Shown one piece after another: positions 2,597 to 44,957 of a stretch of 64,000 nucleotides of DNA; the stretch's first letter is position 1, and the number at the start of each line of letters is the position of its first letter. The stretch comes from a candidate division WWE3 bacterium (GTDB lineage: Bacteria > Patescibacteriota > WWE3 > UBA101185 > UBA10185): NCBI GenBank assembly GCA_052035175.1, contig JBPOHV010000001.1, forward strand, positions 41,569 to 105,568. The letters are read 5' to 3'. The notes under the pieces are model-generated. The model saw only the letters and a list, made by a program, of their open reading frames with translations. It was not told where the DNA came from and made no database searches. The translations under genes were made by a program, and so were the position numbers.

Positions 2597-2618
2597 TCTT
2601 TTCGTTTTTGCATTTATT

Positions 2619-4916: not shown

Positions 4917-4919
4917 GAC

Positions 4920-5215: not shown

Positions 5216-5270
5216 GATGCATTTTGCAACAAAGCTGTTTTTTCTGGTTAAACCTTTGTATAATGTGCCC

Positions 5271-6521: not shown

Positions 6522-6528
6522 AAGTTAG

Positions 6529-13107: not shown

Positions 13108-14514
13108 TTATGCACTTGTGTAAATAAGATTTTTAATAGACTCTATTTGTTGCTTTATTTCTTGTTCTTGTTGTATTTGTTCGCCTACTTTTCTTACACC
13201 GTGCAAAATAGTTGTATGATCTCTTCCGCCCAAAAAATCACCTATTGTCATAAAAGGAGTTTTTGTTATTTCATACATCAGATACATAGCTACTTGTCTT
13301 GGTATTACTAAATCTTTAGTTCGACGTTTACCTTTTATATCCGTGCTTTTTAGTGAGTAGTATGTGCATACGTTTTTTAGTATGTGGTTCATGTTTACAG
13401 GTTTTTTGAAATCTATTCTCATTACATCACTTAATATATTTTTTGCTGTTTCTATTGTTATATTTGTTATTGGTATAGACTTTGCTTTTGCTACAAGTTG
13501 TATGTAAGCTCCTTCGAGTTCGCGTACATTGGTTGGCATATTCTCAGCGATAAAATCTATAACTTCATTTGAAACTGTATCTTTGTTCAGATCTCTTTTA
13601 CGTCTTAAAATTGCGCTTCGCATTTCCATATCTGGTGTTTGTATATCAACTGTCATACCACTTGCAAATCTAGATGTTATGCGTGCTGGTAATTTGGTGA
13701 ATTCTTGTGGTGGACGATCTGATGTAAGTACAATTTGTTTTTCTTCCATTGTTAACGTATTGATTGTATGAAAAAGTTCTTCTTGTGTGGTTTCTTTTCC
13801 AATAATGAATTGAACATCGTCGATTAACAGTACATCTACACTTCTATATTTTTCACGAAATTTGTTTGATGTATATTTTCCTCGAGCTTTACCCGTCTGT
13901 ACTAATTCAATAAGCTCATTTGTAAATGCTTCTCCTGTTGTGTATAAAACTTTTAGTGATGGCTTGTTTTCTAATATCTTGTTGCCAATGGCTTGAATTA
14001 GGTGAGTTTTTCCCAGACCGACTCCAGAATAAATAAACACTGGGTTATAGCTTTTTCCCGGATTATCTGTCGCTGCTGTAGCTACTGCGTATGCCAATTG
14101 ATTGTTTTTACCGATCAAGAAATTTTCTAGTGTATACTTTTTTGACAAGCCTGTATTTTGATTTGTATGCATTTGTGTGTTTTGCTCTTGTACTGTTTGT
14201 AATAAGGGTGCTTCTGCTATTTCTGGGATTTTATGCGTGATTGGCTCAAATTTTTCTACAATATATTTTATTTCAATGTGTTTTCCGTTTTTTCTATCTA
14301 CTGTGTCTTGTATCAATCCTTTTAATTTACCTGTTACCCATGATTTTACGATTGTGCTTTGGCATGCTATCAAGAGACCTTCTTGTGTAAGTGCTTTTGC
14401 ATTCGTTTTTGTTAACCAACTGTTGTATGTTCCTCCAGACAAAGTTAATTCTAACTCTGATAAAACAGAGTCCCACAACTTTTTTGCATCATTTTGTATA
14501 TAAGTATTACTCAT
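13108..14514 (-). CDS. dnaA: Chromosomal replication initiator DnaA
   Basis: AAA+ Walker A GVGLGKTHL. C-terminal DnaA-box-binding domain (VAMYLMYEI...GGRDHTTILHG). Confidence 0.9.
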   Translation of the reverse strand: MSNTYIQNDAKKLWDSVLSELELTLSGGTYNSWLTKTNAKALTQEGLLIACQSTIVKSWVTGKLKGLIQDTVDRKNGKHIEIKYIVEKFEPITHKIPEIAEAPLLQTVQEQNTQMHTNQNTGLSKKYTLENFLIGKNNQLAYAVATAATDNPGKSYNPVFIYSGVGLGKTHLIQAIGNKILENKPSLKVLYTTGEAFTNELIELVQTGKARGKYTSNKFREKYRSVDVLLIDDVQFIIGKETTQEELFHTINTLTMEEKQIVLTSDRPPQEFTKLPARITSRFASGMTVDIQTPDMEMRSAILRRKRDLNKDTVSNEVIDFIAENMPTNVRELEGAYIQLVAKAKSIPITNITIETAKNILSDVMRIDFKKPVNMNHILKNVCTYYSLKSTDIKGKRRTKDLVIPRQVAMYLMYEITKTPFMTIGDFLGGRDHTTILHGVRKVGEQIQQEQEIKQQIESIKNLIYTSA

Positions 14515-14591
14515 GATTTTCTGCAGCTTGCTGCATTTTCTTTAATTAGTTATTTTTGAGGGGGCAGTCTAATAAATTTATTAAACAAAAG

Positions 14592-14600
14592 TTATCCACA
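14592..14600. promoter_or_regulatory. Perfect DnaA box TTATCCACA in the dnaA promoter region
   Basis: Exact consensus 9-mer about 78 bp upstream of the dnaA start codon. Confidence 0.5.
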
Positions 14601-15844: not shown

Positions 15845-16269
15845 GCTTCTTCCAAAAAATCTTTCAAAATAAAGTATGCCGCAATATGGTCTGTTGTACG
15901 GCGCTCCTTAACAGTCGCGCCAAGTCTTATCGTTTCTTCGTGTGCGTCCATTGATGTGCCAAACTCATCTTGATATGTAACATGCCTTTTTGTGTATATT
16001 CGTAGTTTCTTGCCAAATTGCATAACTTTTTTTGACATCTTTGTTTCTTTACCTGCATGAGAAAGAGGTAAACCTACTACCAGTTCATCAACATGGTTTT
16101 CTATACAGTATCTTGATATTGCTTGTATTGCGTATACTTCATTGTTAAGTGTAAGTGTTGTAAGTGGTGCTATTATGCCGTTTCTAGCCAACGCAAGTCC
16201 TATATTAGTTGTTCCGTAATCTATACCCAACACTGTTAATTTTTTAATGTCTGATTTGTTTTTTGTCAT
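15841..16269 (-). CDS. ruvX: Putative pre-16S rRNA nuclease / Holliday-junction resolvase-like YqgF
   Basis: GIDYGTTNIGLA N-terminus and an RNase H-like fold pattern. 142 aa. Confidence 0.65.
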   Translation of the reverse strand: MTKNKSDIKKLTVLGIDYGTTNIGLALARNGIIAPLTTLTLNNEVYAIQAISRYCIENHVDELVVGLPLSHAGKETKMSKKVMQFGKKLRIYTKRHVTYQDEFGTSMDAHEETIRLGATVKERRTTDHIAAYFILKDFLEEA

Positions 16270-17801
16270 TCTTTTTGCGTGTCTATTTCGATATTTGTAG
16301 ATTCTGTTGGAATGTTTCTAAAGAATGGCATAGTTGGAGCTATATTAATCTCATATGTGCTTATATTCCTTATTTCGCTGATTATCCTTGCAGCCTCTTG
16401 TTGATTTTTGCCTGCTAGTTCTTGTTTTAGCGTTTCATCATTTATGTCTGGTACCACAAAGGTTTTGAGCGTGACTTGTAAATCGGCTTCTTGTGATGAC
16501 AATTTGGTTTGCGCCGATTTCCCCAAAACTTCTGTTTGGATTTCTTCATCTTTTGTTGATAATACGAAGCCTTGAGGCACTAATTCCTTGGTTACTTCTT
16601 GCATCACCTTTTCTAGGTCATTTGGTGCATATACAAGGCCTTTTATATTTAAAGTTTGGTTTAGTGTTAGTTTGTTGGTTTCGTCATTTTCTTTATGACT
16701 GAGCGTTTCTTTTAACAGTATGATTTCTTCAGACCCATCTACAAGCTTTTGTGTATTTGCTATTTTTTCTTTTAATTTTCTTTTTGAGTTTTCATTGATT
16801 GTAGCCTTTATCTCTTCTTGTGCTTTTGCTATATCGGCTTTGGATACTACTTTCACAGTATCACTAGAACCGCCGTCCAAATCTTCTTTTACCTGGGCAT
16901 ATGCACTAGATGCAGAGTATTTATCTATATCCAACTTCTCGTCTTTGGCTATATTGTAGACTTTACCAAAGCCATTAGCTGTAATTGCAACATCTGCTGT
17001 ATGATATTTGACTACGCCTTCAGTTTCTCCCGGTGCCGGCGGAAGTATCTCACGCGCGGGTATTGATACTTCTTCGTCTGTTTTGTATTCCAAATCTTCT
17101 TCGTCAAATGTCAGTTTGGTGCCTTTTTTTAATTCAATGTCGTTGTCTGTGTTGTTATATATAGTTACAGTTCCTTGCGCGTAGTTACCTATCAATTTTT
17201 CTCCTGTAGTTTCTATTTCTATAGCTTCATCTATTGTTGTTTCTACTGTTTTGCCAGAAATGACTTTTTGATCTGGCGACGCTTGTCCGCTAGCTAGTAC
17301 TTTTATTTGTAAACTCCTTGTTAATGGTTGCGAGTTAACAACTATCTTGATATTTGCATGCGGTAGTGTTTTGCCCACGTATATATATGTTGCTGCTAGT
17401 AATGCGAAAATTACCCCAATCACTATCGGCGTTTTTTTCATATTTGTTTGTGAAAAGTTTGGTAAACGTATTTGCATTTTATTAAATTTAAATTTACTCA
17501 AATCTGGCATTTGTAAACCCAGCTTGAATCTACTTGTGTTACTTTGTTCTAACGTGTTGTCATTTTCAATTGTATCATCGAGTAAATTAATAAGACTTTG
17601 TGCTTTTCGATCATTTGTAATGAAATGTACCGTTTTACCTTGTTGTTCTAATTGCTTTTTTATTAGTTTAAGATTGACAACATTTTCAGCAATCAAAGCA
17701 TCTTCCGGGATTTCTAGTTCTATCCCAAAATCGTTTATATCTTTTATTTTATTTATTACAGAAATTACATTGTCGTGTATTTCTAAAGCTAGTTTAGTCA
17801 T
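16266..17801 (-). CDS. Bitopic membrane protein. 125-aa cytoplasmic N-domain, one TM, ~370-aa extracytoplasmic domain. Operonic with the actin-like ATPase.
   Basis: TM helix PIVIGVIFALLAATYIYV. Overlaps the upstream gene by 4 nt. An internal INLL motif (SLINLLDD) is present. Confidence 0.5.
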   Translation of the reverse strand: MTKLALEIHDNVISVINKIKDINDFGIELEIPEDALIAENVVNLKLIKKQLEQQGKTVHFITNDRKAQSLINLLDDTIENDNTLEQSNTSRFKLGLQMPDLSKFKFNKMQIRLPNFSQTNMKKTPIVIGVIFALLAATYIYVGKTLPHANIKIVVNSQPLTRSLQIKVLASGQASPDQKVISGKTVETTIDEAIEIETTGEKLIGNYAQGTVTIYNNTDNDIELKKGTKLTFDEEDLEYKTDEEVSIPAREILPPAPGETEGVVKYHTADVAITANGFGKVYNIAKDEKLDIDKYSASSAYAQVKEDLDGGSSDTVKVVSKADIAKAQEEIKATINENSKRKLKEKIANTQKLVDGSEEIILLKETLSHKENDETNKLTLNQTLNIKGLVYAPNDLEKVMQEVTKELVPQGFVLSTKDEEIQTEVLGKSAQTKLSSQEADLQVTLKTFVVPDINDETLKQELAGKNQQEAARIISEIRNISTYEINIAPTMPFFRNIPTESTNIEIDTQKE

Positions 17802-19054
17802 AATTCTTCAAATAAACTTACAAGCGCTTCTGGCTTAAACCATTCTACTGATTGTATTTTACCAGTTGCATCGTGTATATACGGTTCTATTTGGTTTAGT
17901 GTAATTCTATAGATTACAGGGTTACCTTTGAAAGGTATGCTGCGCGTCCATTGTGTAGTGTGCAAGACTTCTAGCGTGTCTTTTATTTGCATACCCTTTC
18001 CAAAAACATAAATATTTGGTGGAAAAGTTCTAACTCCTGTAAATTCTGAGAATAAAATTTCGACACCGCTTAGCCACATATTGGTTATCTCAGCTAAACA
18101 AGTTTTGATAGTGTCTACTTCGGCTTGTGTTAGTGTGTTTTTGCAATAAGCAGTCAAAACTCTTTGACCTTCTTCTAATGTAATACCCATTTTTAAACTC
18201 AATTCCTCTGCAAAGTGCCTGTATCCAATATTTAACACGCGCGTGCTTACTATACCTCCACCAAAGACAACACATATTTCTGTGTAGTCTTCTTCGATGT
18301 CCAATAATAAACAATCTAGTACATTGATGTTTAACTTTTTTAACGATTCTAGAATCGCGTACAGCTCTGATCCTATTGTGAGAAGTGTAAGCTGGGCTTT
18401 GTTGACACACTTTTTCAGCGTATCCACATGCTTTTTTGGTGTGAATGATGATGATAACGCTTGTTCTATTGTATCGCCGGTAAGGTTATATGTGCGTATT
18501 TGTTCATCCGAGACATATCTGCCGTCAATCTTTGTGTAAACAATATTTGAGGATGTGTCTATCAGATCTGTTTCTGTATTGCCGGTGATTTCAATATATT
18601 GGTTATAAGCTTCTATGCTTGCTGCGTCGGTGATTCTTTTTGAAATGTCTTGGAGCTCTTTTGGTGTAATAGCGCTTTCTCTGTGTGCGCGCACTGATTT
18701 TGCAGTTGTTATGACTCCAAGAGATAACTCACCAGAAACGCCTAAAATAACGCTATTCACAAAGTCTTCTTGTTCTTGATTTATTTCTTGCACAACTGAT
18801 GCTAGTGCCTGTGTTAACAAATCACTTCTAATTATATTTCCGCCTCTTATTGTGCCCGGCTCAAGAAAATGTTCTGCAAATGCAATTATTTTATATGGGG
18901 CTTGTGGCGCAACAGACGGTACGATGTTCGTATTTTGATCTGTTTGCGTGTCTTTATAGATAAGTAAACATTTAACTGATTCGCAGTTTATACTTATTGT
19001 TAAAAATCTGTTTGGTATTGAGGGTGGTTTTGAGAAAAAGGGCAACTTAAACAT
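17798..19054 (-). CDS. Actin-like ATPase (FtsA/PilM/ParM superfamily)
   Basis: The 418 aa are consistent with a two-domain ASKHA fold. Degenerate phosphate-1 region LTISINCESVKCLLIY. Exact family not resolved. Confidence 0.45.
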   Translation of the reverse strand: MFKLPFFSKPPSIPNRFLTISINCESVKCLLIYKDTQTDQNTNIVPSVAPQAPYKIIAFAEHFLEPGTIRGGNIIRSDLLTQALASVVQEINQEQEDFVNSVILGVSGELSLGVITTAKSVRAHRESAITPKELQDISKRITDAASIEAYNQYIEITGNTETDLIDTSSNIVYTKIDGRYVSDEQIRTYNLTGDTIEQALSSSFTPKKHVDTLKKCVNKAQLTLLTIGSELYAILESLKKLNINVLDCLLLDIEEDYTEICVVFGGGIVSTRVLNIGYRHFAEELSLKMGITLEEGQRVLTAYCKNTLTQAEVDTIKTCLAEITNMWLSGVEILFSEFTGVRTFPPNIYVFGKGMQIKDTLEVLHTTQWTRSIPFKGNPVIYRITLNQIEPYIHDATGKIQSVEWFKPEALVSLFEEL

Positions 19055-19092
19055 TAGTTACATTATAGGGGATGGGGGATGGTGTGTAAATT

Positions 19093-20445
19093 TTAGTTCT
19101 CAGTAAACTCACCTTCTTCTACATCTTCATACATACTCTTGTTAGCGGCATCACCATCAGCATCATCTTCCTCTTCGATTACTTGTCCATTAAGTGGACC
19201 AAATAAATGCGCATATTTTTCTTTTATTTGTTTTTTTCTTAGTGCAACTTTTTCGGGTATTTCATAAATAGCAGATCTATCACTTCCCGCTAGACTTATC
19301 AATTCCCTGTTGTATTCGTCTAATATCTCATTTAGTTTGTTTTCTAATCCTACTTCTCCTCCTTCAGCTGCAGCAGTTAAAATGCCTTCTAACCAAGAAT
19401 CAGCCGCTGCTTGTAACTTTTCTTCTGGTGTCATTGGTTCTGGCGCTGGCCCATTATCAGTTTTATATCTTCTATTCTTTATTTCAGCTTCATCAACTGG
19501 TGTTTCTGCATTTTGTTTATTTACTCTATGCCAGGTTTTATTTACCTTAGGTGTCGTGGCATTGGTAAGTGCACTTTCATATGAATCTGTGTTGTTTGCA
19601 GAAACACTTTCTATTAGTGTGTTGGTTGTTTCAGGTGTTTCTCCTATAGGCGGTTGTGCATCAGTGGGAATTTCTTCTCCTGAAGTTTGATCTGGCTCAT
19701 TGTTTTGTTGTGTTTGCGTATGTTGCTCTTCAGCCTCGTTATTAGTACTTGTATTTGTAACCCTAGGTACGCTTTCAAATAGCGAATTATTAATACCTTC
19801 TACAAAAGTTCCTACTTTTCTGTTGTGCACATGCCCATAGTGTGCAGTAAATAGCTCTGTACTCATACGTGAAGTGTTTTTACTTACTTTATTTATCCAC
19901 GCTGGGTCTAGACTACCGTCTGATTGTTTTATTTCAGAATATCTACCTTTCCCAAAATCCCAAGCTATGTTATCGAGTTCTTGATAAGTGCCTCGCAGGC
20001 TCATTCCTGGTATTGATTGCTGCTTTGAATGGTAAAACCAGTAAATTTCCGAGTAAGTAATTACAACCCGTTCGGTAAATGCTTGTATGTTTTCATCTTT
20101 TATCACTCTATACTGTGCACTTTCTTCTTCCCATAGTCTTTTGGCTACTGCATAAAGTAAATTTTTATCTTCAAATACCCATCTATCTATACCACCAACT
20201 CTTAACTGTGGTTGTGTTTTTGCTGTTTCTGTCCACGCCTGAGCTATAGCTGAGTGAAAATCATCTAAGTTAGCTTCGGTTATACTTTCTAATTTTTTTG
20301 GTTTTGCTATATCTGGCGGCCAGTTAGCCAACTCGGGTTCATGGTGATTAATAGGACGTTCTTTTATTTCTAGTTTCCATTTATCTTCGGCAATGTTCTT
20401 ATCTGTAGTGAATGCATTGACTAATTGTTCTTTTAGTATATCCAT
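19093..20445 (-). CDS. Hypothetical soluble protein with an acidic, low-complexity C-terminus
   Basis: No TM helix. Belongs to the same operon as the VirB4-like ATPase. Confidence 0.45.
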   Translation of the reverse strand: MDILKEQLVNAFTTDKNIAEDKWKLEIKERPINHHEPELANWPPDIAKPKKLESITEANLDDFHSAIAQAWTETAKTQPQLRVGGIDRWVFEDKNLLYAVAKRLWEEESAQYRVIKDENIQAFTERVVITYSEIYWFYHSKQQSIPGMSLRGTYQELDNIAWDFGKGRYSEIKQSDGSLDPAWINKVSKNTSRMSTELFTAHYGHVHNRKVGTFVEGINNSLFESVPRVTNTSTNNEAEEQHTQTQQNNEPDQTSGEEIPTDAQPPIGETPETTNTLIESVSANNTDSYESALTNATTPKVNKTWHRVNKQNAETPVDEAEIKNRRYKTDNGPAPEPMTPEEKLQAAADSWLEGILTAAAEGGEVGLENKLNEILDEYNRELISLAGSDRSAIYEIPEKVALRKKQIKEKYAHLFGPLNGQVIEEEDDADGDAANKSMYEDVEEGEFTEN

Positions 20446-20448
20446 ATA

Positions 20449-22875
20449 TTAAAAAGGTAATTTGCTTCTTATCATCCCACTATCGCCAAAAATATCTTCT
20501 TCGTCTTCTTCTTTTTCGTCTTCAAAGCCTGCGCGTTCTTTGACATACGCCTCGACTTCTTCAGCCGGTGTGCCATACTTTTGACGATTTGTTTCCTTGA
20601 TTTCTTCTGCAAGTTCTTTGCTGCGTGTTTGAGCACTTATCGCAGCCCAATCTACTTGCATCGAAAACGGAGGCGTCGGATGACCATCTACTAAAAGTTT
20701 AACATAAGAATTACCCATGGGTAAGTTGGCCATATCTTGTTTTGTGAAGGTCGGACTAAATTGTTGTTCCATAAATTCTGCGTCTGGAATACCAATTCTA
20801 AAAGAAGCCATTGTACCTACGTTACCAAACACTGCGTTTTTTATATCTTCTGTAAGTTGTGCAACAAATTGATGCGCAACGACTAAATTGAGTTTGTATT
20901 TACGTGCTTCAGATAAAATAGTTGCAAAGTCTGGTGTCGCAAAATTTTGAAATTCGTCTACATACAAAAAGAAATTTGGAAAATCTACTTTACCCAATAA
21001 CTTGTGTCTTTCTAATGCTGCCGACAATATCTTTGGTACTAGTAACAATCCTATAAAATTGGAATTTTCTTCTCCAAGCTTACCTTTTGCTAAATCAACT
21101 AATAAAATCTTTTTTTCTTCCATGATCTTAGCGATGTTAAAAGAAGATTTTTTCTGCCCCAATATGTTACGCATTGTTTTGTCTGTTACAAAACGGTCAA
21201 ATTTTGAAACAAAATATCCCATCGTTTCGCCTTTTCGCTGTTGAGATGTGTTTGCAACTTCGTCAGTCCAGTATCTTTTTATCAAAGGATCTTTTATGTT
21301 AGGTATGAATTTCTTTGAATATTTTTCATCTATTGTCAAACGCATGACGTCGATCATTGTTGCATTTGGATCAGTCATTGCAGTCAACATGATATTTCTA
21401 ATCGCGCGTTCCAAAATCGGTCCCATAATACCTTGTTTATTTGGGTCATACAGCTTGTACAAAAGTGCGATGAATGAATTTACAATCATATGTTTTTCTT
21501 CTTCCGAGTTAGCTTCAAGCAGGTTTATACCCATAGGGCGTTCTTCTTCAGCAGCATCAAAGTAAATAACATCTTTTTTTCTATGTTCTGGTATTTTTTC
21601 CAAAAGTTCTTGTACATCTGTACCGTGCGGATCGATTACACATAAACCTTCACCATTAATAATGTCTTGCAGTGCCATTGACATCAAAAATACCGATTTA
21701 CCTGTACCGGTTTGCCCTATTATGTAAAAATGACGAGTACGATCTTTGTCTTTCATAAAGATCTTTTTTTCAGTGCCTCTAAATATACTTTTACCAAGGT
21801 ATAATCCCTCACTTGGTATATTTACAGGCGCAGATGCACGTCGAGATCCTAGCCATACAATATTTGGCGTTTCTACATTTTTATTTGGAAAATGAAATAC
21901 TGTGGCCAATTCTTGTGTGTTTAATAAAGCAGTATTTCTATAAAGGTGCGTGTTAAATATGGGGATTATCCATTCAGACAATCTTATTCTGCGGTAAATA
22001 AAGTCATCTACTAGTTTTTGTGGGGAAAAGGCGTATTTCAAAACAAACTTGTTGTAATTGACGTCTGTAAATTGTTCAAATGCTGTCGCAGCATTTTGTA
22101 TCAGGCTGTCTGCTGCAGTAGAGTTTTCTGCGATTGCTACCAATCTAATTTTTACATCAAATCCTGGGTATTTGATCTTTTTTTCTATTCCTTCCAAAAA
22201 CGAAGTGTCTATGTTGTATTTTTTATCTGGGTTGTTTGCTTTGGCTTTTACATTGGTTATAAAACTTTTCCCAGACATGCGCCAGCTATTTGATGCTGGT
22301 TGCATTACATATTGAACAGCCAAAACTTCTTTGTCATTTAATTTACTCATAGCCGATGTTATTGCGCTGAGTGAATCTGTTTGCAAATCTTCGTAGACTT
22401 TTATTGGGTAATAAGGTGCGCCTTTGAGTCGTAGCTCACATACGCGTGTAAATTCTCCGCGGTCCCAGATTTCATGTGGGTTAACTATATCTATTTCTGC
22501 AGAAGGGTACGCTGCGTTGATTTGCTTTTCTACTAACTGTGCTATTTCGTCTGGAACAGCTACATAAAAAGAAATACCAGTTTGTTTAGAAACTATTTCA
22601 AAAGAAAATCTATATTGCCCAGTAAGCCATGCACTTATTGCCGATTTCTTGATCCCTGACAAACTCGCAAACATTTGTTCGGCAGTTTTGATTTCTATCT
22701 CATTGTCTTTTGGCAATTTAATTTGTAAAAAAGTGAGATTAAATTGTGTTTTGTGCTCATTTTTATTTCTGATAGAGTTCAAAATCCAAGAAATCAAGCT
22801 ATAGAAAAGCAATATTAATATGCCAAAATATACGGTTATCCAAAATAAAACATAAAATAATCTATTTGTGTCCAT
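20449..22875 (-). CDS. VirB4/TrbE-like secretion/conjugation ATPase (FtsK-HerA superfamily), with N-terminal TM helices
   Basis: Walker A GQTGTGKS. Followed by CVIDPHG. Walker B FLYVDEFQNF. VVAHQF motif. ~380-aa N-domain plus ~420-aa ATPase domain. Confidence 0.55.
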   Translation of the reverse strand: MDTNRLFYVLFWITVYFGILILLFYSLISWILNSIRNKNEHKTQFNLTFLQIKLPKDNEIEIKTAEQMFASLSGIKKSAISAWLTGQYRFSFEIVSKQTGISFYVAVPDEIAQLVEKQINAAYPSAEIDIVNPHEIWDRGEFTRVCELRLKGAPYYPIKVYEDLQTDSLSAITSAMSKLNDKEVLAVQYVMQPASNSWRMSGKSFITNVKAKANNPDKKYNIDTSFLEGIEKKIKYPGFDVKIRLVAIAENSTAADSLIQNAATAFEQFTDVNYNKFVLKYAFSPQKLVDDFIYRRIRLSEWIIPIFNTHLYRNTALLNTQELATVFHFPNKNVETPNIVWLGSRRASAPVNIPSEGLYLGKSIFRGTEKKIFMKDKDRTRHFYIIGQTGTGKSVFLMSMALQDIINGEGLCVIDPHGTDVQELLEKIPEHRKKDVIYFDAAEEERPMGINLLEANSEEEKHMIVNSFIALLYKLYDPNKQGIMGPILERAIRNIMLTAMTDPNATMIDVMRLTIDEKYSKKFIPNIKDPLIKRYWTDEVANTSQQRKGETMGYFVSKFDRFVTDKTMRNILGQKKSSFNIAKIMEEKKILLVDLAKGKLGEENSNFIGLLLVPKILSAALERHKLLGKVDFPNFFLYVDEFQNFATPDFATILSEARKYKLNLVVAHQFVAQLTEDIKNAVFGNVGTMASFRIGIPDAEFMEQQFSPTFTKQDMANLPMGNSYVKLLVDGHPTPPFSMQVDWAAISAQTRSKELAEEIKETNRQKYGTPAEEVEAYVKERAGFEDEKEEDEEDIFGDSGMIRSKLPF

Positions 22876-36819: not shown

Positions 36820-37644
36820 CTATTCGTCTAATTCAGCTGTTACCAGCAATCTATTAGTTTTCAATCCTCCGGGCCAGCACGTTAATAATGTAAGCGTAGG
36901 TTTGTTTAGGTATAAAGGATTAACCGTATCGATAGGATTTATTTCATTTGGTTTTTTTATCTCTGTTTTTTGAACAATGTATTTTATTTCTTTGTTGTTG
37001 TAATTTACATTTATTTCATCTCCAGTAACTAATCTATCTAGTGTTGCAAAAATGGTTTTGTAGTTCTTTGGATTATAAAAGAAAGCTAAAACCGAATGTC
37101 CATAAATGAGTGTGTTACCATTTTCGCCGGGTAAAGCAGTATTTGGGTAATGCCCCAAAAAGTTTTCTGGGCTTAGTTCTTGTGAATTTGTTTCAACTAG
37201 CGCATTTTCTATATTGAGCTTTGGTATCGAAATATAAAAGTATTTTGGTATATTTGTATCTTTTGCAGCTAGCACCGCTGGATTTGTAACAATGTTATTT
37301 ATCGGTGCTGACAAATTATTTTGTGCCAGATCAACTTCCAATTCTTTGGGTTGTTGCTTGGAAATTTGTTTTCTAAGTTCTGTAAATTCAAATTTTTCAA
37401 AACCCACTGCCCATGCAAATAACGTATTTTGTTGTTTAAATTTGTTCTCCAAATGTTGTAACGGCGTAGTAAAAAAAACCAATGGCATGATCACTTGTAC
37501 GACCAAGACTGCGAGTCCAACTATAAATAAAAACCTGTGCAAATTTGTACGCGCAAAGAAACTTTTGTTTTTTTGTGTATAAAATGGGATTCGCGAATAA
37601 TCTTTGAAATATATCTTTTTTTCAAATTTATTAAATATGGGCAT
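36820..37644 (-). CDS. Sortase (transpeptidase)
   Basis: Catalytic TLLTCWP Cys motif. LIYGHSV His. N-terminal TM anchor. Confidence 0.75.
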   Translation of the reverse strand: MPIFNKFEKKIYFKDYSRIPFYTQKNKSFFARTNLHRFLFIVGLAVLVVQVIMPLVFFTTPLQHLENKFKQQNTLFAWAVGFEKFEFTELRKQISKQQPKELEVDLAQNNLSAPINNIVTNPAVLAAKDTNIPKYFYISIPKLNIENALVETNSQELSPENFLGHYPNTALPGENGNTLIYGHSVLAFFYNPKNYKTIFATLDRLVTGDEINVNYNNKEIKYIVQKTEIKKPNEINPIDTVNPLYLNKPTLTLLTCWPGGLKTNRLLVTAELDE

Positions 37645-38351
37645 TATTCAGAGTTTATCACTTTTTCCATGGCTAAAGGTAATAATAAATCCAAAGGCAT
37701 CACGCCAGTTTTTGCATTTTTATCTAGATCATAAAAATAGGTATAAATTTCTTTGATACTTTGTTCAGAAAACTTTGTCGCAAACTTTTCATACTTTGAT
37801 TTTGTAAAAGGTGATAAAGTTTTGCCTTTATCAGAGCCGCATACTAAATAACCAACAGTACGCAATCCGTATAGCAAAAGCGAAAAGAAATATATTGGAT
37901 CGTTATCTTCTAAAGTCATAGCTTTTTGCAATTCTTTATATGCTTTTGTGCGATCTTTTGCAAAAACAGCATCAACATATGCAAAGACATTACCTTCGAT
38001 TGGCTTAGTATTTTCAACAATTTTTGCTTTGAGGCTTGCTGCAGCTTTTATAAAAGCATTTGATTTTGTTAGAGATTTGTTTGCTAGTAATATTACTGTG
38101 GCTGTTTCTGGTGCATCTTTGATTATTTGAATATGGTCGGTGTAGTCGCCAGTTTTTGATGCTGATATATCTATAACTACAAAAGGCGTTTCCCCAAAAA
38201 TACCAAACGCGCTCACTTGCGAGTTAAGTTCATCTGGTGTGAGTTCTTCGAGTTTTTTTTCAAAAACAATTACATTAGTAATTTTCTTTTGCTGGTTTTT
38301 AACTATTTTTCTATTAGCTGTATAGTCGGTACCGTGTACAATATAAATCAT
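37644..38351 (-). CDS. DNA polymerase III delta subunit-like (HolA-like)
   Basis: N-terminal IYIVHGTD and overall size and pattern resemble short HolA. Weak call. Confidence 0.4.
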   Translation of the reverse strand: MIYIVHGTDYTANRKIVKNQQKKITNVIVFEKKLEELTPDELNSQVSAFGIFGETPFVVIDISASKTGDYTDHIQIIKDAPETATVILLANKSLTKSNAFIKAAASLKAKIVENTKPIEGNVFAYVDAVFAKDRTKAYKELQKAMTLEDNDPIYFFSLLLYGLRTVGYLVCGSDKGKTLSPFTKSKYEKFATKFSEQSIKEIYTYFYDLDKNAKTGVMPLDLLLPLAMEKVINSE

Positions 38352-39385
38352 TTTGTACTAAAAAGGTATTTTTGTACGTATGCACGTATTTGTGTGTAGT
38401 CTCCTGCTTTGGGTATAAGCACATACGCACCTCCGTATAGAGATGTGTCTTGTGGTGCATATAGTAATCCGCCTTCTTCTTCTGTACTTCTATCGTCTAA
38501 AACTACAGAAGTGATGTTTTTGAAGTCGAAGTCTTTGGCTAATAAAAGAAATGCCTGAACCGCAGAGATATCGACATCTGTCTCAACATTTTTTGCATAC
38601 GAGTTATATAATTCTATGATTTTACTAGGGTTGGCAAGAATACCTGTAGATAACGCTTTATCTTTTATTGCTAAGATGACTTTGTGTTGACGTTTTGCCC
38701 GAGCAAAATCTGTGCCTTCATTGTTGTTGCCTTTTCTTGATCGTGCAAATTTTAATGCAGTTTTGCCGTCCATGTTTTGTATACCTGCTTCAAAGTGAAG
38801 TGTTTCATACCGTTCATTGATGGGGGCGTTTTCTTTTCCTTCTATCGGATATTCATAATCAGTGAAAGCCGTTTCTACGTTTATGTCTACACCATCTAGT
38901 ATGTCTATAACTTGTTCAAACATATCAAATGTGACGACAGAGTAGTAATGAATAGGTACACCCATAGATGTTTCAATTATCTTTCTAAGTTCTTCTGGAC
39001 CTTTAGAAGTATAAACTGCATTTATTTTGGAAAATCCTCCTGAGGGTTGTTCTACCCATAAATCACGCGGTACAGATATAAGCACAGCATTTTTATCTAC
39101 TTTGCTGACTGATGCTATTAATATTGTGTCAGTTAATACTGATGTAACTGTACCGTTATGGCGTTTATCGAGCCCTAGTATCAAAATGTTTGTACGTCCA
39201 TCTGTGTCTTTCAAGTTTGGTGATACGACATTGGCAACTACACTGATTGGATTAAAAATACCATTTAACTTACCAGAAAGTGCGAGCCCCACAATAATCA
39301 TTGTTAGCAACAGCCCAACTGCGGCAGTAATCCTGCCTCTGCTTTTTTGTGGTTTTTCTTTTTGTTTTATATCTATGTATGTCAT
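38348..39385 (-). CDS. LytR-CpsA-Psr (LCP) family cell-envelope phosphotransferase
   Basis: N-terminal TM. ILILGLDKRHNG...VPRDLWV...GGFSKINAVY LCP core. Confidence 0.75.
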   Translation of the reverse strand: MTYIDIKQKEKPQKSRGRITAAVGLLLTMIIVGLALSGKLNGIFNPISVVANVVSPNLKDTDGRTNILILGLDKRHNGTVTSVLTDTILIASVSKVDKNAVLISVPRDLWVEQPSGGFSKINAVYTSKGPEELRKIIETSMGVPIHYYSVVTFDMFEQVIDILDGVDINVETAFTDYEYPIEGKENAPINERYETLHFEAGIQNMDGKTALKFARSRKGNNNEGTDFARAKRQHKVILAIKDKALSTGILANPSKIIELYNSYAKNVETDVDISAVQAFLLLAKDFDFKNITSVVLDDRSTEEEGGLLYAPQDTSLYGGAYVLIPKAGDYTQIRAYVQKYLFSTK

Positions 39386-39396
39386 TAAATTATCTT

Positions 39397-40038
39397 TTAT
39401 TTATCAAATGCTTTAGCTATGTCCAAAAAGTGTTCGGGATCCAAGCTAGCATGTCCTACAAGTACTCCTGAGATATCTTGTATATTAGCGAGATTTTCCA
39501 CATTTTGTCTATTTACAGACCCGCCATATATAATTTTTTTACTAAACTGCAATTTGGTTGTGATCTCTTTTATATTTGAAGAAATTTGATCAATATTTGT
39601 ATTTTTGTATACACCATTTTGACTTATATTATTGTGATCTTCCCAAGCTAATAACGCGTCTTGATGGTCAAAAGTTTGTGCTTGTTCCAATGTTTCAAAA
39701 CATATTATTGGCGTTATCTTATTTTTCAAACATAAATCTCTTTTTATCAAAGTTTCTTCGTTTTTAGGTTTTGTTTCGCTGTGTCCAATTATGCAGTATT
39801 TACAAAAAGCTTTTATACTCTCAATAGAAGTTGCCCCTGTGTGCGCACCTGTTTCAAATATAGAAATATCTTGAGATGCTGTGGCTAATGTTTCACTTGT
39901 TAATTCCAAAAACGCTACTTGTGGCGCTACTATAAGCTTTGTTTTTTGAGAACTATATTGAGAAACTATTTTTAGCCAGTTGGTTATTTCCTCTGTTGTA
40001 TTTTTGCTCAATTTAAAATTGGCTATTATGTACTTCAT
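39397..40038 (-). CDS. tpiA: Triosephosphate isomerase (short form)
   Basis: IIANFKLS, GAHTGATS, IGHSETK, YGGSV. Confidence 0.8.
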   Translation of the reverse strand: MKYIIANFKLSKNTTEEITNWLKIVSQYSSQKTKLIVAPQVAFLELTSETLATASQDISIFETGAHTGATSIESIKAFCKYCIIGHSETKPKNEETLIKRDLCLKNKITPIICFETLEQAQTFDHQDALLAWEDHNNISQNGVYKNTNIDQISSNIKEITTKLQFSKKIIYGGSVNRQNVENLANIQDISGVLVGHASLDPEHFLDIAKAFDK

Positions 40039-40056
40039 AAACTCTTTTTATGTACT

Positions 40057-40935
40057 TCATAAACTCTCTTTATGTATTTCATGCATTACTTCTTCTATAT
40101 ACTTTGGAAGATTTTCTAAATCTTCGTGTGTATAGTTATACCCCAAACAATTTAAACAAGAAAATACTAAACCCAAATCAGCATACAAACTTTCTGCATA
40201 CTTACAGCCTACAAGAGAATGTAATAATACATTTCCGCCAATTTCACCTTGTTTTGAATCTTCGCATCCCATTGGGCAATTGCTACAAGAAGGTTTGTTT
40301 GATGGGTTAATTGATATTTTGTCTACTTTAGACAATATCTCATTGTATAGGTCATTATACTTTTCAAAGTCTTTGACTTCAAAGGCTTCTGTACCGGTGA
40401 TTACAATTGAAGCTACATTTTTTTCGTTTAGCTTGCCTTTTAAGATATCTTGAGGAGTACAAAAATAATTATCTAATATACCAGCATTCAAAACACAGCG
40501 CTTGCCGGGCAATCCTAGCTTTTTAATGTCTATACTTTCGTCATGAAATTCTACATTACTGTTGACGATTTCTAAAGTTGTTGTTTGTTGTGCTTTATTG
40601 AGTAATACAATTGCGTCTGCACCAGTGAACCTTAATTTTGTTGATAATGAACCGCCAATGTATACATCTTCGATGTGAGGCGCATTTTCAAATACAATAG
40701 CTGTTTTTGAGATATATGGAAAAAATCCATTGAGCGGACCAATTGCAAAAATCAATGGTTGTTGGTCTTTGTACAGTTGCTGCAACTTTATTCCCAGACC
40801 GACGCCGCCTATATATTTATGTAGTCCAGTAATACTTTTTAGCTCGTGTGTATTGGTTTGGAGGTCTATTAATAATACTTTCCTAGAATCCGTTGTTAAT
40901 TGCATTTTCACTTTCTTCTTTAATTTCAAATACAC
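40057..40935 (-). CDS. Truncated AOR-family protein: AOR N-terminal domain plus a Cys-rich C-terminus
   Basis: KVLLIDLQTNTHELKSI...YIGGVGLGIKL...LIFAIGPLNGFFPYISKTAIVFENAPH...FTGADAIVLL matches the AFOR_N domain. The C-terminus carries CSNCPMGC...CLNC. The real start may be the Met at 40905. Confidence 0.55.
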   Translation of the reverse strand: MYLKLKKKVKMQLTTDSRKVLLIDLQTNTHELKSITGLHKYIGGVGLGIKLQQLYKDQQPLIFAIGPLNGFFPYISKTAIVFENAPHIEDVYIGGSLSTKLRFTGADAIVLLNKAQQTTTLEIVNSNVEFHDESIDIKKLGLPGKRCVLNAGILDNYFCTPQDILKGKLNEKNVASIVITGTEAFEVKDFEKYNDLYNEILSKVDKISINPSNKPSCSNCPMGCEDSKQGEIGGNVLLHSLVGCKYAESLYADLGLVFSCLNCLGYNYTHEDLENLPKYIEEVMHEIHKESL

Positions 40936-41143
40936 CTGTCGGACATATTCTTTTGATCTTATTTATGTCCAAATTGTTTATGCGTGGGTCCATATCAATC
41001 AAAAACTTAATTCCGCTGTCATCACGGAATACTCTTATTAGAGATTCTTCAATCCCTACTTTTTGTAACTGTCTTTGTGCTTCAAATATGCACAATTCGC
41101 ATCCAATGCATTTTTCCGGAAAAGAAATGTTAAGTATTTTCAT
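40883..41143 (-). CDS. Small 4Fe-4S ferredoxin-like protein
   Basis: CIGCELC...CP motif. 86 aa. Start overlaps the pgk stop by 4 nt. Confidence 0.55.
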   Translation of the reverse strand: MKILNISFPEKCIGCELCIFEAQRQLQKVGIEESLIRVFRDDSGIKFLIDMDPRINNLDINKIKRICPTGVFEIKEESENAINNGF

Positions 41144-42114
41144 TTGGTTTGTATTATCTCCAACCCAGGCAGTGTTTCATTTGCTAAAAACTGTAACATA
41201 GCGCTACCACCTGTTGAAATAAAGCTTATGCCTTCGGTTAATTCCAAATGATTTAATGCGGCTATAGTGTCTCCACCGCCAACTACAGTGTACACATGCA
41301 TTTCGGTTATTTGTTGTGCAATTGTTTTAGTTCCTTTTATATAATTTGGGTCTTCCCACATTCCTATTGGACCTGCCCAGATAATTGTTTTGGCACCACG
41401 TAAGCATTCTAGGTAGGCTTGAAGTGTATTTGATCCAATATCTCTATTATCGGTGTAATCGCGCGGTATTTCTAAATTTTCTGGTACTTCTTGTGTCCAT
41501 TCCAAACCTAGTCTTCCGGCTAAAAGTACTTTGTCTGCCTTTTTTAAAAGATTTGCAATTGTAGGACTTTTACTTTCTACTTTTGCCCCGCCTATTATCG
41601 CAATGAATGGACGTTCTGGATTGTTAAGCAACTTTTGTAAGACTTCGACTTCTGTGAGCAAGTTTAGCCCAGCATATGCCGGTAACAATTTTGGTAATTG
41701 CATAATTGATGCGTGTTCTCGATGAGAAGTGGCAAAGCTTTCATTTACGTATATATCTAACGAGTATTTTTGAATCAACTCTTCGGCAAATTCTGCTGAA
41801 TTTGCCTCTTCTCTTGGGTCAAATCTCAAGTTTTCTACAAGCTCATATTTATTTATTCCCAAATTTTCATCAAAATAACTTTGCAAGTGCTTGGTGCTTA
41901 ATTCGGGAACAGTTTGCCCTTTCGGTTTGCCTAAGTGCCCTGCAATAACGGGTTTTGCTTGTTTTTCAATTATGTACTTTAATGTTGGTAAAGCTCGATC
42001 CAATCTGAACGTGTCCAAGACAACGCCATCTTTCAATGGTACATCCAAATCTGTTCTTACAAATATGCGTGAGTCTTTTTTTATGTCTGCATCAACGATA
42101 GATTTAATATGCAT
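41140..42114 (-). CDS. pgk: Phosphoglycerate kinase (short form)
   Basis: FVRTDLDVP, GHLGKP, FATSHREHAS, GGAKV. Confidence 0.85.
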   Translation of the reverse strand: MHIKSIVDADIKKDSRIFVRTDLDVPLKDGVVLDTFRLDRALPTLKYIIEKQAKPVIAGHLGKPKGQTVPELSTKHLQSYFDENLGINKYELVENLRFDPREEANSAEFAEELIQKYSLDIYVNESFATSHREHASIMQLPKLLPAYAGLNLLTEVEVLQKLLNNPERPFIAIIGGAKVESKSPTIANLLKKADKVLLAGRLGLEWTQEVPENLEIPRDYTDNRDIGSNTLQAYLECLRGAKTIIWAGPIGMWEDPNYIKGTKTIAQQITEMHVYTVVGGGDTIAALNHLELTEGISFISTGGSAMLQFLANETLPGLEIIQTK

Positions 42115-42140: not shown

Positions 42141-42851
42141 TCAAATCACTTCTTTTACAAGGAAGCTAACCAAGGTATCTGCGACTAGTTGATTGGCATG
42201 TTTATTTGGATGAGAATCTATAGGAATCATTGGACAGTATTCACTTTTTAGAAAGCCACGCTCATCTGCTAATGTGTCAAAGAGATCAAATACATGTACG
42301 CTGCTAGATCTTTTCCATGTGGTTGCGAGCCAACTGGCAAATTCTTTTGCACGGTGCGCACATTCTGTAGTAGTTACTTCTTTTCTAAGCGGTGGGGGAG
42401 TAAATGGTATGAATATTTTGTCGTTAAGCTTTTCAAAGGCAATTGCCATTTGTTCATAATGGTTTTTATACCTTCTCAGTTTTTCATCACTTTCTATTTT
42501 TGTGGTTGGAAAACAATTCTTAAACGCTATAATGTCAAACCCTAGTATTTGGTCTAGTGTTGTGCTTGGTGTACAAAAAAGCTTTTCAAAGTCTTTGGGG
42601 TCATTATTACCAAGTTTAATATTGAAATCTTTAAAAAGCATCATGCCTTTATCATTGCTTAGTCCTGTGTGAAATGTAAGTTTATTTGCAATTATATTTA
42701 GTAATAAACGAGGAATATCTTTATATAAATTGTAACCATGATCCCAAAGTTCTATTTGAGTGGTTTGTTGATACAGCTTTTCTCGAAGATTTCCTTGATG
42801 TATTAAATTACCACCGGTTGAATGATGTATGAATAACAATCGTTTTTTCAT
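42141..42851 (-). CDS. SGNH/GDSL-like hydrolase (putative)
   Basis: FIHHSTGGN (block I-like), LGNNDP (block III), DSHPN (block V DxxH). Confidence 0.45.
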   Translation of the reverse strand: MKKRLLFIHHSTGGNLIHQGNLREKLYQQTTQIELWDHGYNLYKDIPRLLLNIIANKLTFHTGLSNDKGMMLFKDFNIKLGNNDPKDFEKLFCTPSTTLDQILGFDIIAFKNCFPTTKIESDEKLRRYKNHYEQMAIAFEKLNDKIFIPFTPPPLRKEVTTTECAHRAKEFASWLATTWKRSSSVHVFDLFDTLADERGFLKSEYCPMIPIDSHPNKHANQLVADTLVSFLVKEVI

Positions 42852-42858
42852 TGATTTC

Positions 42859-43686
42859 TCAAATCTCCATTTCTGCCCAAACTGGATAATGGTCAGATCC
42901 TATTAAATTATGATATACCCCTGATCGTATTATATGTAACCCCTTGTGTAGAATCCAATCAGTTCTTTGTTCTAGCGTGATACCTATATGAGGCAGTTTC
43001 TCTATAGCAGTGTGAAAAGGTATCGCTGGGTTAACAGCATTTCGAATATCAGATGTATGCGTATTTGTATTTCCTACTATGTTAAATGCAGTTCCTACGT
43101 CGTTGGCTATCTTATAAATCTCACCAGTAACCTTTTCATGTTGATATGGCAAAATTCCTATAGTGTTGAAATCGCCTAAAATTATAGTGTGTTTTATATC
43201 TGTGCGTAATTCTTTTTTTAATGCCATAAGTTGCTTATGCTTTTGTGCATATCCCCCAGCTAAATCCAAATGTACAACAGCTACCTGTAAAGTATCATTT
43301 TCTATTTTATGTTCACTCACAATCGCCCCATACAAAGGCATTTGCTTCATAAAATAGCCTTGTATTCTCCACGGGGATTTTTTTAACTGCGGTAATGTTA
43401 GTTTTGCTGTTTTTGTTGTCGTGCAATTTGTTATAGTGCAAATTCCTAGATTATTAACATCAGGTTCTTTATACATATTAAATGTGCAATGAAATCCTTT
43501 GAAGCAAGTTTCGATTTGTTCTACCAATTTACTTGTTTTAGTACTAAGCCTTACTTCTTGCAGAGTTATAAATGAATACCTATATGTTCTTGCAATTGCA
43601 GCAAGCTCCCTTAGTGAAGAGATTACATCAGGCTTAACTCCATATAAGATATTGTATGTACAAATAAAGATAGAATTTTTTAGCAC
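42859..43686 (-). CDS. Endonuclease/exonuclease/phosphatase (EEP) family protein
   Basis: ITLQEV, VVHLD, ILGDFNT, GSDHYPVWAEM. Confidence 0.65.
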   Translation of the reverse strand: MLKNSIFICTYNILYGVKPDVISSLRELAAIARTYRYSFITLQEVRLSTKTSKLVEQIETCFKGFHCTFNMYKEPDVNNLGICTITNCTTTKTAKLTLPQLKKSPWRIQGYFMKQMPLYGAIVSEHKIENDTLQVAVVHLDLAGGYAQKHKQLMALKKELRTDIKHTIILGDFNTIGILPYQHEKVTGEIYKIANDVGTAFNIVGNTNTHTSDIRNAVNPAIPFHTAIEKLPHIGITLEQRTDWILHKGLHIIRSGVYHNLIGSDHYPVWAEMEI

Positions 43687-44684
43687 ATGCTTAGCGCCAT
43701 TTCGACAAGACGATTGCTATAACCCCATTCGTTGTCGTACCAAGCCATGACTTTGACCAAGTCGCCGTCGACTACTTTTGTCAAAGATAAATCAACAATC
43801 GAAGAAAATGGACTTTTTACAATGTCGCTCGAAACCAATGGTTCAAAAGTGACATCAATCACATCTTTATAAAAAGGATTTTTCTTTGCTTCTAAAAATG
43901 CATTGTTTACTTCATCAACGGTTGTCTTTTTTTCAACCAGCATTGTGATATCACTGAGAGACCCGACCAAGATTGGTACACGTATTGCTAGGCCGTCAAA
44001 TTTATCTTTTAAATCGGGTATCACTTTTGTTACTGCTTTAGCCGCCCCAGTAGTTGTAGGTATCATGTTTGTAAGTGCTGATCGTGCTCTACGTAAATCT
44101 GGATGTAACCCTGGTGGAGCCCCGTCTACCAAATTTTGTTCTGCTGTTACAGCGTGAATTGTTGTCATCATTGATTTCAAGATTTTGAAGTTTTTATGCA
44201 TGATCGAAATAACAGGCGCCAAAGAGTTAGTAGTGCAAGATGCATTTGAAATTGCATTTTGTCCAATATATTGATCCGCATTTACGCCTTTGAGGAATGT
44301 AGGTATAGTTCCGTCAGTAGGCGCAGATACGACTACTTTTTTTGCTCCTGCTTGTACGTGTGCAAGTGATGCATCATCTTTTGTAAATCTTCCTGTGCAT
44401 TCAATTACTACATCAACGTTCAATTTTTGCCATGGAAGTAACGTGGGGTCCTTTTCTGCAGTTATCAATGTTTTTTTGTCATCAACAACCAAATAATTAT
44501 CTTCTACTGATATGTTTTTTTGAAAAATTCCATAAGCAGAATCGTATTTTAATAAATGAGCTAGTACTTTTGGTTCACCCAGATCATTTATACACACAAC
44601 TTCAACATCTGCTTTGTCTTGTAAAATTCTGAACGCGGCTCGGCCGATTCTTCCAAATCCATTTATTGCTATGCGGGCAGTCAT
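43680..44684 (-). CDS. gap: Glyceraldehyde-3-phosphate dehydrogenase
   Basis: INGFGRIGR, SNASCTTN, and a C-terminal WYDNEWGYS. Confidence 0.9.
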   Translation of the reverse strand: MTARIAINGFGRIGRAAFRILQDKADVEVVCINDLGEPKVLAHLLKYDSAYGIFQKNISVEDNYLVVDDKKTLITAEKDPTLLPWQKLNVDVVIECTGRFTKDDASLAHVQAGAKKVVVSAPTDGTIPTFLKGVNADQYIGQNAISNASCTTNSLAPVISIMHKNFKILKSMMTTIHAVTAEQNLVDGAPPGLHPDLRRARSALTNMIPTTTGAAKAVTKVIPDLKDKFDGLAIRVPILVGSLSDITMLVEKKTTVDEVNNAFLEAKKNPFYKDVIDVTFEPLVSSDIVKSPFSSIVDLSLTKVVDGDLVKVMAWYDNEWGYSNRLVEMALSMC

Positions 44685-44690: not shown

Positions 44691-44957
44691 TTATGCTAAA
44701 TGTGGTGTTAACCAAGAAAGAAACACTTGTTTTGGCATTGCACCCATTTTGCGATCTATTTCTTTTCCATCTTTCAAAATTACAAAAGTTGGAATACTCA
44801 TAATTCCATATTGAGATGAAAGCTGTTGATCGGCTTCGACATCTATAGTTTTAAATTCTACTTTACCTTGTAGTTCTTTTTCTAACTCTTTGAAAATAGG
44901 CTTCATGGCTTGGCAAGGCCCGCACCAATCTGCGTAAAAATCGATTAATGTAATCAT
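44691..44957 (-). CDS. trxA: Thioredoxin
   Basis: WCGPC active site. 88 aa. Confidence 0.8.
   Translation of the reverse strand: MITLIDFYADWCGPCQAMKPIFKELEKELQGKVEFKTIDVEADQQLSSQYGIMSIPTFVILKDGKEIDRKMGAMPKQVFLSWLTPHLA

Follow-up and report, generated by a model that had tools for sequence, protein, structure and literature searches.

Enzymes of the aldehyde:ferredoxin oxidoreductase (AOR)/WOR family are defined by a tungstopterin together with one [4Fe-4S] cluster. The locus described here, found in a stretch of 64,000 nucleotides (nt) from a bacterium of candidate division WWE3, or Katanobacteria (the window: assembly GCA_052035175.1, contig JBPOHV010000001.1, positions 41,569 to 105,568), encodes two proteins related to these enzymes, namely a small ferredoxin (Fd) and a short AOR-like protein, mini-AOR. 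In the described systems, an active AOR needs a tungsten (W)-bis-pterin-Mg cofactor, whose Mg is held through the carbonyls of Asn93 and Ala183, and the second-shell catalytic residues are Thr243, Glu313, Tyr427 and His448 (PMC12096430, PMC13328260). The large subunit of these systems, WorL, is represented by the AOR (1AOR) and FOR (1B25) of P. furiosus. The mini-AOR shares with WorL the fold and sequence of domain 1 (AFOR_N), the CxxCxxxC plus distal-Cys ligand set of a single [4Fe-4S] cluster and, likewise, a ferredoxin partner. However, WorL measures ~600 amino acids (aa) and mini-AOR 282 aa, and the latter is devoid of domains 2 and 3 (AFOR_C), of both pterin-binding motifs and of the regions of Thr243, Tyr427 and His448.

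Class II WORs, including PfASOR/WOR5 (6X1O) and the GOR of Caldicellulosiruptor bescii (CbGOR, clade 20), show the same order, a small Fe-S subunit (WorS) followed by the large one, and Fd shows homology with the N-terminal portion of a polyferredoxin of this kind. The Class II WorS carries four clusters whereas Fd has one, and WorL binds W-bis-pterin whereas the pterin domains are deleted in mini-AOR. CbGOR works in glycolysis, and the Fd and mini-AOR genes sit among glycolytic genes. Archaeal GAPOR is, as mini-AOR, a ferredoxin-linked member of the AOR family, and it replaces GAPDH and PGK; in contrast to mini-AOR, it is a monomeric tungstopterin protein of ~650 aa, and the WWE3 genome keeps GAPDH and PGK. 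Closer to the window are relatives of 538-554 aa (P0210, P0213; P0211, P0214, P0219) that occupy the same Fd-AOR-LytR-holA-sortase locus, with the same one-cluster Fd upstream, but that retain AFOR_C and are not followed by tpiA, unlike mini-AOR.

Targeted literature searches returned no paper describing mini-AOR, or any AOR-family protein, in genomes of WWE3 or of the candidate phyla radiation (CPR). A 2026 census of WORs selects proteins with both InterPro domains (PMC13328260), and N-domain-only proteins are omitted because both domains are required, so that a class-wide short form has gone unnoticed. The reading we favour, to which we assign about an even chance, is that Fd and mini-AOR descend from a two-subunit Class II AOR/WOR that became miniaturised and lost its tungstopterin, and that they work as a two-cluster electron-transfer or redox module. 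Within it, the anatomy and the evolutionary origin of the pair are proposed with high confidence, while the relay mechanism is tentative and falls somewhat short of an even chance.

Anatomy of mini-AOR and of its ferredoxin

A preliminary description of this DNA had placed two genes between pgk and tpiA, and both open reading frames (ORFs) are indeed found there, on the minus strand (Table 1). The larger one had been described as a 292-aa AFOR_N protein. Its domain assignment stands: residues 19-134 score 66.6 bits on Pfam AFOR_N (PF02730 / IPR013983), above the cut-off of 29.8 and with E=3.4e-18, and the match reaches ~residue 200-210 once the family profile is aligned to full-length relatives. 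Its length is to be revised, 292 aa being the maximal ORF. Indeed, M11 corresponds to the first residue of all homologues and of P0001 (282 aa), an identical database entry, so that the gene likely begins at the ATG at 40905 and overlaps the Fd gene by 23 nt. Residue numbers nevertheless follow the 292-aa ORF throughout. In databases the protein is named 'aldehyde ferredoxin oxidoreductase N-terminal domain-containing protein' and nothing more specific. The AlphaFold model of mini-AOR (pLDDT 82, pTM 0.84) was compared with the PDB by Foldseek, with the top nine matches at E 2e-13 to 4e-11 and the next one at 7e-3; the significant folds all belong to the AOR family (1aor, WOR5, FOR, bifurcating AOR, CaAOR, BamB and AorB).

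When the family profile is searched locally (hmmsearch) against the nearest full-length relatives, it aligns as three collinear pieces. Using the 538-aa P0210 as reference, profile positions 8-200 correspond to residues 7-221 (domain 1), positions 204-218 to residues 263-277 (the CxxCxxxC loop), and positions 229-268 to residues 444-483 (helices with the fourth Cys, E 7e-9); over the 538-550-aa relatives, the C-terminal segment (profile 229-270) aligns to residues 444-494 (E 7e-9 and 2e-8). The deletions with respect to P0210 amount to ~38, ~156 and ~42 aa, and domain 1 is shorter besides. Judging from these alignments, mini-AOR arose by internal deletions and not by simple C-terminal truncation, so that 'truncated', as the gene had been called, does not describe three internal deletions. 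That domains 2 and 3 are absent was correctly recognised: Pfam gives no match to AFOR_C (PF01314 / IPR001203) in mini-AOR, and tblastn queries covering domains 2/3 from seven full-length relatives give nothing in any frame of the 64-kb window and no AFOR_C remnants in ~700 kb around 84 short genes, 807 kb of window and loci having been covered in all.

The pieces that are kept include the ligands of the cluster. C217, C220 and C224 align to residues 284-296 of 1aor and to the CxxCxxxC of P0210, P0213, P0215 and P0216, while the cluster ligands of P. furiosus AOR (PfAOR), C288, C291, C295 and C494, are fixed by the alignment of P0215 to 1aor. On account of this alignment chain and of the direct match to 1aor, C217, C220, C224 and C244 are the equivalents of the PfAOR ligands. 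All four are kept in the 79 complete orthologues (79/79) and in 28 out of 29 divergent representatives (50% identity), and a fifth Cys, C260, is present in 78/79 orthologues and 26/28 motif-bearing representatives. The Cys-rich tail of the preliminary description is thus conserved at these five positions, whereas the second Cys of its 'CLNC' (C263) is not conserved among homologues. By this measure, the short family conserves its Fe-S site more than any other feature.

A different fate is apparent for the cofactor site. Domain 1 of mini-AOR still presents K77 (equivalent to PfAOR Arg76), a GG motif at 94-95 and GLPGK at 141-145. In the loop 182-188 of PfAOR (RAAGRGG, including the Mg-binding Ala183), both arginines align with Phe and Glu/Gln in mini-AOR, the family motif at this loop being YF(T/C)TP(E/Q). 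The deletions take out both pterin-binding domains (2 and 3) along with the regions carrying Thr243, Tyr427 and His448, and the position of Glu313 falls at the edge of the large deletion, with no assignable equivalent in mini-AOR. Because pterin domains, second-shell regions and loop arginines are gone, aldehyde oxidation by tungstopterin is not credible for mini-AOR, and a bound W- or Mo-bis-pyranopterin cofactor appears unlikely.

The smaller gene had been described as an 86-aa single-cluster ferredoxin. The ORF is real, C12, C15, C18 and C67-P68 do not vary across the homologues (30/30), and the motif is found in 78 of 80 orthologues, with Pfam Fer4 (PF00037) at 20.6 bits, marginally under its cut-off of 21.1. 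By hhalign, Fd aligns with residues 1-74 of an AOR-linked polyferredoxin of 164 aa (prob 92.9%, E 3.8e-7), whose gene lies directly upstream of P0215, an AOR of bona fide appearance. By sequence, Fd ranks highest in the PDB with the Fe-S subunits of WOR5 and the bifurcating AOR, although below significance; its predicted structure is of low quality (pLDDT 62), and the corresponding Foldseek matches do not reach significance either. With one cluster motif versus four in WorS, the comparison supports Fd as a one-cluster remnant of a WorS-type polyferredoxin small subunit, that is, a derivative rather than a four-cluster member. According to standard ferredoxin topology, Fd would keep cluster I of a 2x[4Fe-4S] unit, made of the three Cys of motif 1 and the CP of motif 2. 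The homology of Fd to the N-terminus of the polyferredoxin thus implies that both subunits of a Class II WOR, WorL and WorS, have been miniaturised.

Conservation and descent of the pair

A search of 5.8 billion proteins with mini-AOR returned 324 matches, and the 120 matches listed are all 276-287 aa, and those with a name come from WWE3 or Patescibacteria. When 1.84 billion cluster representatives were searched exhaustively with a profile, ~30 full-length short representatives (270-302 aa) emerged, followed by proteins of 538-604 aa and then by ordinary AORs. Gene order was compared in a one-genome-per-species scan that considered the best 80 of 100 relatives, including the complete genome RAAC2_WWE3_1; all 80 bear a WWE3 or Patescibacteria label. 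The length of mini-AOR is uniform, with a median of 281 aa across 79 species. The Fd gene is directly upstream in 80/80 loci, overlapping mini-AOR in 67 of them, and tpiA is directly downstream in all 77 loci with enough sequence, followed by LytR-holA-sortase. The array trx-gap-(pgk)-Fd-miniAOR-tpiA is kept in most of the 80 genomes. In particular, pgk precedes the Fd gene in ~69/80 loci, gap directly precedes it, with no pgk in the locus, in 9/80 (L029, L040, L047, L048, L055, L057, L061, L085, L087), and neither gap nor pgk is detected upstream of Fd in L041. Crude Nei-Gojobori medians of the ratio of nonsynonymous to synonymous substitution rates (dN/dS) are 0.17 for mini-AOR (35 pairs), 0.21 for pgk, 0.32 for Fd and 0.42 for tim. 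These sequence comparisons show the Fd and mini-AOR genes to be under purifying selection and translationally coupled, and on the same basis mini-AOR is a selected protein and not a broken gene.

The closest sequence relatives of the short forms are the AOR-like proteins of 538-554 aa (E 1e-33 to 1e-25). In related Patescibacteria the same locus contains the one-cluster Fd, then a 538-554-aa AFOR_N+AFOR_C protein, then LytR and holA; tpiA does not follow the AOR gene in these full-length loci, some of which are also without pgk. The arrangement pgk-Fd-AOR538 is found in L089, whose P0210 keeps the cluster motif and the equivalents of Thr243 and Glu313, and shows PYFNGY at the His448 region where P0215 has GYHTGY. 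A 538-aa relative with its Fe-S site placed directly after pgk leaves, therefore, room for an ancestral glycolysis-linked, GOR-like role. The arrangement gap…Fd-AOR550 is found in L005 and L006 (8001-9653 in each), which encode P0214 and P0211. These 550-aa forms, together with P0219, have both AFOR_N and AFOR_C and no CxxCxxxC, and an Asp takes the place of the fourth Cys ligand, a degeneration of the opposite kind to that of the mini-AOR of the window.

In a neighbour-joining tree of the N-domain (no support values), the short forms constitute one clade, with P0210/P0213 as its sister group; the 550-aa forms without cluster branch next, and the AORs of 585-604 aa after them. The nearest of the latter have generic labels only, and one comes from a Methanosarcinaceae metagenome-assembled genome. 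The more distant short forms keep the order Fd-mini-AOR-tpiA-LytR; one of them (L007) has thioredoxin upstream and no pgk. In another distant short-form locus (L008), a gene set of a group-3-type [NiFe]-hydrogenase, with large, small, FAD/NAD-binding and Fe-S subunits, lies at 2059-6539, directly upstream of pgk-Fd-miniAOR-tpiA, the Fd ORF having been missed by the gene finder. These sequences suggest an AOR specific to the lineage, whose cofactor sites were lost differently from branch to branch while its pairing with a small Fd persisted.

Possible functions of the pair

In the reading that we favour, AOR domain 1, the CxxCxxxC loop and the helix with the fourth Cys ligand would make mini-AOR the holder of one [4Fe-4S] cluster and Fd would bind another. 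The two proteins might dock as WorS and WorL do, forming a two-cluster, low-potential electron-transfer pair that, without W-pterin, would not oxidise aldehydes. Such a pair would most likely relay, buffer or sense the electrons of a ferredoxin pool reduced by PFOR, the electrons possibly going onward to a partner protein, and its place in the trx-gap-pgk-…-tpiA array would be inherited from an ancestor that had the full-length enzyme there. The ferredoxin-linked pair of the preliminary description is, in this respect, plausible. The complete WWE3 genome RAAC2 encodes most of the Embden-Meyerhof-Parnas (EMP) pathway, PFOR, an ADP-forming acetyl-CoA synthetase and a type 3b hydrogenase (Kantor et al., PMC3812714), and among its electron carriers figures a 'ferredoxin oxidoreductase-like protein' (PMC3812714) that plausibly, although not certainly, is the mini-AOR gene.

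Several points weigh against this proposal. Cluster binding and heterodimer formation are deduced from sequence alone, confidence in the structure model is lower in the cluster region (pLDDT 57-82, residues ~220-290), and no downstream electron acceptor was found for the pair. A pure relay role leaves unexplained the invariant C260 and the GEIGGN and THED motifs, the two motifs being invariant in the core subfamily and missing from more distant short forms. Moreover, P0211, P0214 and P0219 have no cluster Cys at all yet retain the upstream Fd, and the cohesion of the pair does not, therefore, depend on the AOR cluster in every lineage.

The spare residues would find a use if mini-AOR were an Fe-S protein with a new catalytic or regulatory role in connection with lower glycolysis, with the exposed cluster, C260 and acid/base residues building an active site fed by Fd. 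It could be an FTR-like ferredoxin:disulfide (thioredoxin/GAPDH) reductase or act on a triose-phosphate-derived substrate. Such a role, which we judge unlikely, is in line with the conserved glycolytic array, with the translational coupling of mini-AOR to tpiA in 44/77 genomes, with the invariant C260 at 16 residues past the fourth ligand, with the constancy of GEIGGN and of the H-E-D residues in the core subfamily, and with the retention of K77 and of the GG loop, two elements that contact the phosphate of the pterin in AOR and could accommodate a phosphate ester. Nonetheless, a redox-active disulfide requires two Cys and a single spare one is invariant, the distant short forms do without the two motifs, and there is no resemblance to FTR. 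Position is not decisive either, contrary to the weight given to it in the preliminary description, as the same tight spacing and order run into the unrelated LytR_cpsA_psr, holA and sortase genes, and sister Fd-AOR loci lack tpiA and in some cases pgk; adjacency is therefore weak functional evidence. The related proposal that the pair links lower glycolysis in WWE3 with the ferredoxin pool, as a new Fe-S enzyme or redox switch that works without pterin, is held to be quite improbable. If true, the pair could serve the neighbouring thioredoxin, or GAPDH, as a ferredoxin-dependent disulfide reductase or, alternatively, carry out cluster-based chemistry on a triose-phosphate-derived substrate, and AOR domain 1 with its former pterin-phosphate site would have been repurposed. 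A redox or oxygen sensor with an FNR- or WhiB-type cluster, or a structural partner that stabilises or chaperones Fd, is an unlikely solution too. In the absence of domains 2 and 3 the cluster should be more solvent-exposed than in AOR, and the cluster-less 550-aa sisters that keep Fd and the N-domain may indicate that the core function is binding and not electron transfer; on the other hand, Pfam finds no DNA-binding or signalling domain in mini-AOR, and the cluster Cys are what the short family conserves best.

A further possibility is that of a split AOR or of a working GAPOR- or GOR-like enzyme, still engaged in W- or Mo-pterin catalysis, that would obtain its pterin domains from a second polypeptide or through oligomerisation and would oxidise glyceraldehyde 3-phosphate to 3-phosphoglycerate with ferredoxin. 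The neighbouring gap, pgk and tpiA genes are compatible with it, ~10/80 genomes are without pgk between gap and the Fd gene, a bacterial two-subunit GOR acting in glycolysis is known (PMC12096430, PMC13328260), and the 538-aa P0210, directly after pgk, keeps the equivalents of two second-shell residues, Thr243 and Glu313. Still, it is very unlikely, and so is the GAPOR-like bypass that had been suggested for this locus: the deletions cover both pterin motifs and the Thr243, Tyr427 and His448 regions, genes for canonical GAPDH and PGK lie nearby, no AFOR_C-like sequence was found in the window or in ~700 kb around the 84 short genes, and the fragment of domain 3 that is kept is exactly the piece with the cluster ligand, which a separate pterin subunit would duplicate. 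Membership in the GAPOR family is rejected, since NCBIfam GAPOR_Arch (NF040818) gives no match at E<=0.01 for mini-AOR; the full-length relatives score 30-34 bits on this model, whose cut-off is 1300. Cofactor pathways, moreover, are generally absent from the phylum, which is described as lacking most of them (PMC13293708). A search for AFOR_C-only partners, with the middle region of P0210 against the 5.8-billion-protein index, gave a single partial match and was uninformative. Finally, half the normal length and the loss of the catalytic domains could be those of a decaying fragment of a full-length AOR, and the preliminary description had indeed spoken of a 'remnant' and of a 'degenerated' enzyme. 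The uniform lengths, the invariant motifs, the cluster Cys kept in every complete ORF and the low dN/dS depict instead a conserved family, and no frameshifted remnants or AFOR_C traces emerged by tblastn, so that a pseudogene or frameshifted fragment is rejected, with a residual probability that is practically negligible.

If the favoured reading is correct, strong selection can maintain AOR domain 1 and the elements that bind the cluster even when the catalytic cofactor is gone, and nature would have provided a 'minimal' Fe-S module along with a minimal ferredoxin to match, offering tungsten-enzyme research a way to test domain 1 and the cluster on their own. For the CPR/Patescibacteria, a conserved protein of unassigned role lies amid a core energy-metabolism operon and may help these fermenters deal with reduced ferredoxin. 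Stepwise enzyme miniaturisation would also find a clean case here, in the series of forms (full-length, cluster-less, pterin-less) that share one locus.

Locus and other features of the window

The identities of GAPDH, PGK, TIM and AFOR_N are confirmed by Pfam and NCBIfam, while the names LytR_cpsA_psr, holA and sortase come from tblastn of window proteins to Pfam-annotated genes of related loci. The operon-like tight packing with pgk and tpiA described earlier is borne out: from pgk to sortase, neighbouring genes are spaced by -4 to +18 nt, except for the overlap between Fd and mini-AOR. The 4-nt overlap with pgk also exists, as an ATGA, but it is the start codon of the Fd gene that overlaps the pgk stop codon, and not that of the AOR-like gene to which it had been attributed.

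Table 1. Genes of the Fd/mini-AOR locus and segments of mini-AOR (positions are those of the window)
Feature	Positions	Strand	Basis or remark
Thioredoxin (trx)	44691-44957	minus	
Type I GAPDH (gap)	43680-44684	minus	Pfam + NCBIfam
Endonuclease/exonuclease/phosphatase-family protein (Exo_endo_phos), 275 aa	42859-43686	minus	
236-aa protein	42141-42851	minus	no family match
pgk, short 324-aa form	41140-42114	minus	Pfam PGK E 1.6e-84; PDB alignment
Ferredoxin (Fd), 86 aa, single [4Fe-4S]	40883-41143	minus	CxxCxxC…CP Cys motif
mini-AOR (AFOR_N protein), probable 282 aa	40057-40905	minus	maximal ORF 292 aa from GTG 40935
AOR domain 1, residues ~19-210	40306-40881	minus	Pfam AFOR_N, PDB alignments, hmmsearch, invariant columns
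C217-x2-C220-x3-C224, three [4Fe-4S] ligands	40264-40287	minus	= PfAOR C288/C291/C295
C-terminal helical segment from AOR domain 3 (C244, C260, THED)	40096-40230	minus	profile alignment
tpiA, short 213-aa form	39397-40038	minus	Pfam TIM E 1.2e-34
LytR_cpsA_psr	38348-39385	minus	
holA	37644-38351	minus	
Sortase	36820-37644	minus	

The junction between mini-AOR and tpiA is covered by a 22-nt tandem duplication (40026-40069, copies 95% identical) that includes the stop codon of the former and the start codon of the latter. Copy 1 contains the mini-AOR stop and an out-of-frame ATG mimicking the tpiA start, and copy 2 the real tpiA ATG (40038); in 44/77 related loci the two genes overlap instead. 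The glycolytic enzymes of the window are themselves short. The PGK lacks, with respect to 394-aa bacterial PGKs, ~20 residues near 86-112 and ~55 residues of the C-domain (~230-285), a form that is usual in WWE3 (median 324 aa across the 80 loci). In the TIM, the usual loop-6 'PVWAIGTG' is replaced by 'DHNNISQNG'. This protein scores under every NCBIfam equivalog cut-off, and its closest solved relative is a 216-aa TIM with the same loop (PDB 7r7m, E 1.1e-45). Two additional genes (42141-43686), for the Exo_endo_phos-family protein and the 236-aa protein, separate gap from pgk in the window, the gap-pgk spacing of related loci having a median of ~49 nt with wide variation.

A Pfam scan of 20 other large ORFs of the window identified housekeeping functions only, with no second AOR and no molybdenum cofactor, PFOR or hydrogenase genes, and no tRNA genes were found across the 64 kb. 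Successive large minus-strand ORFs without Pfam match (511, 418 and 450 aa) occupy 16266-22875 and adjoin a protein of 808 aa that weakly matches HerA/DUF87 ATPases. The dnaA gene (13108-14514, minus strand) is located where the sign of the AT skew changes (+0.15 to -0.15, near 12 kb; window 12000-14600), and this region is probably that of the replication origin.

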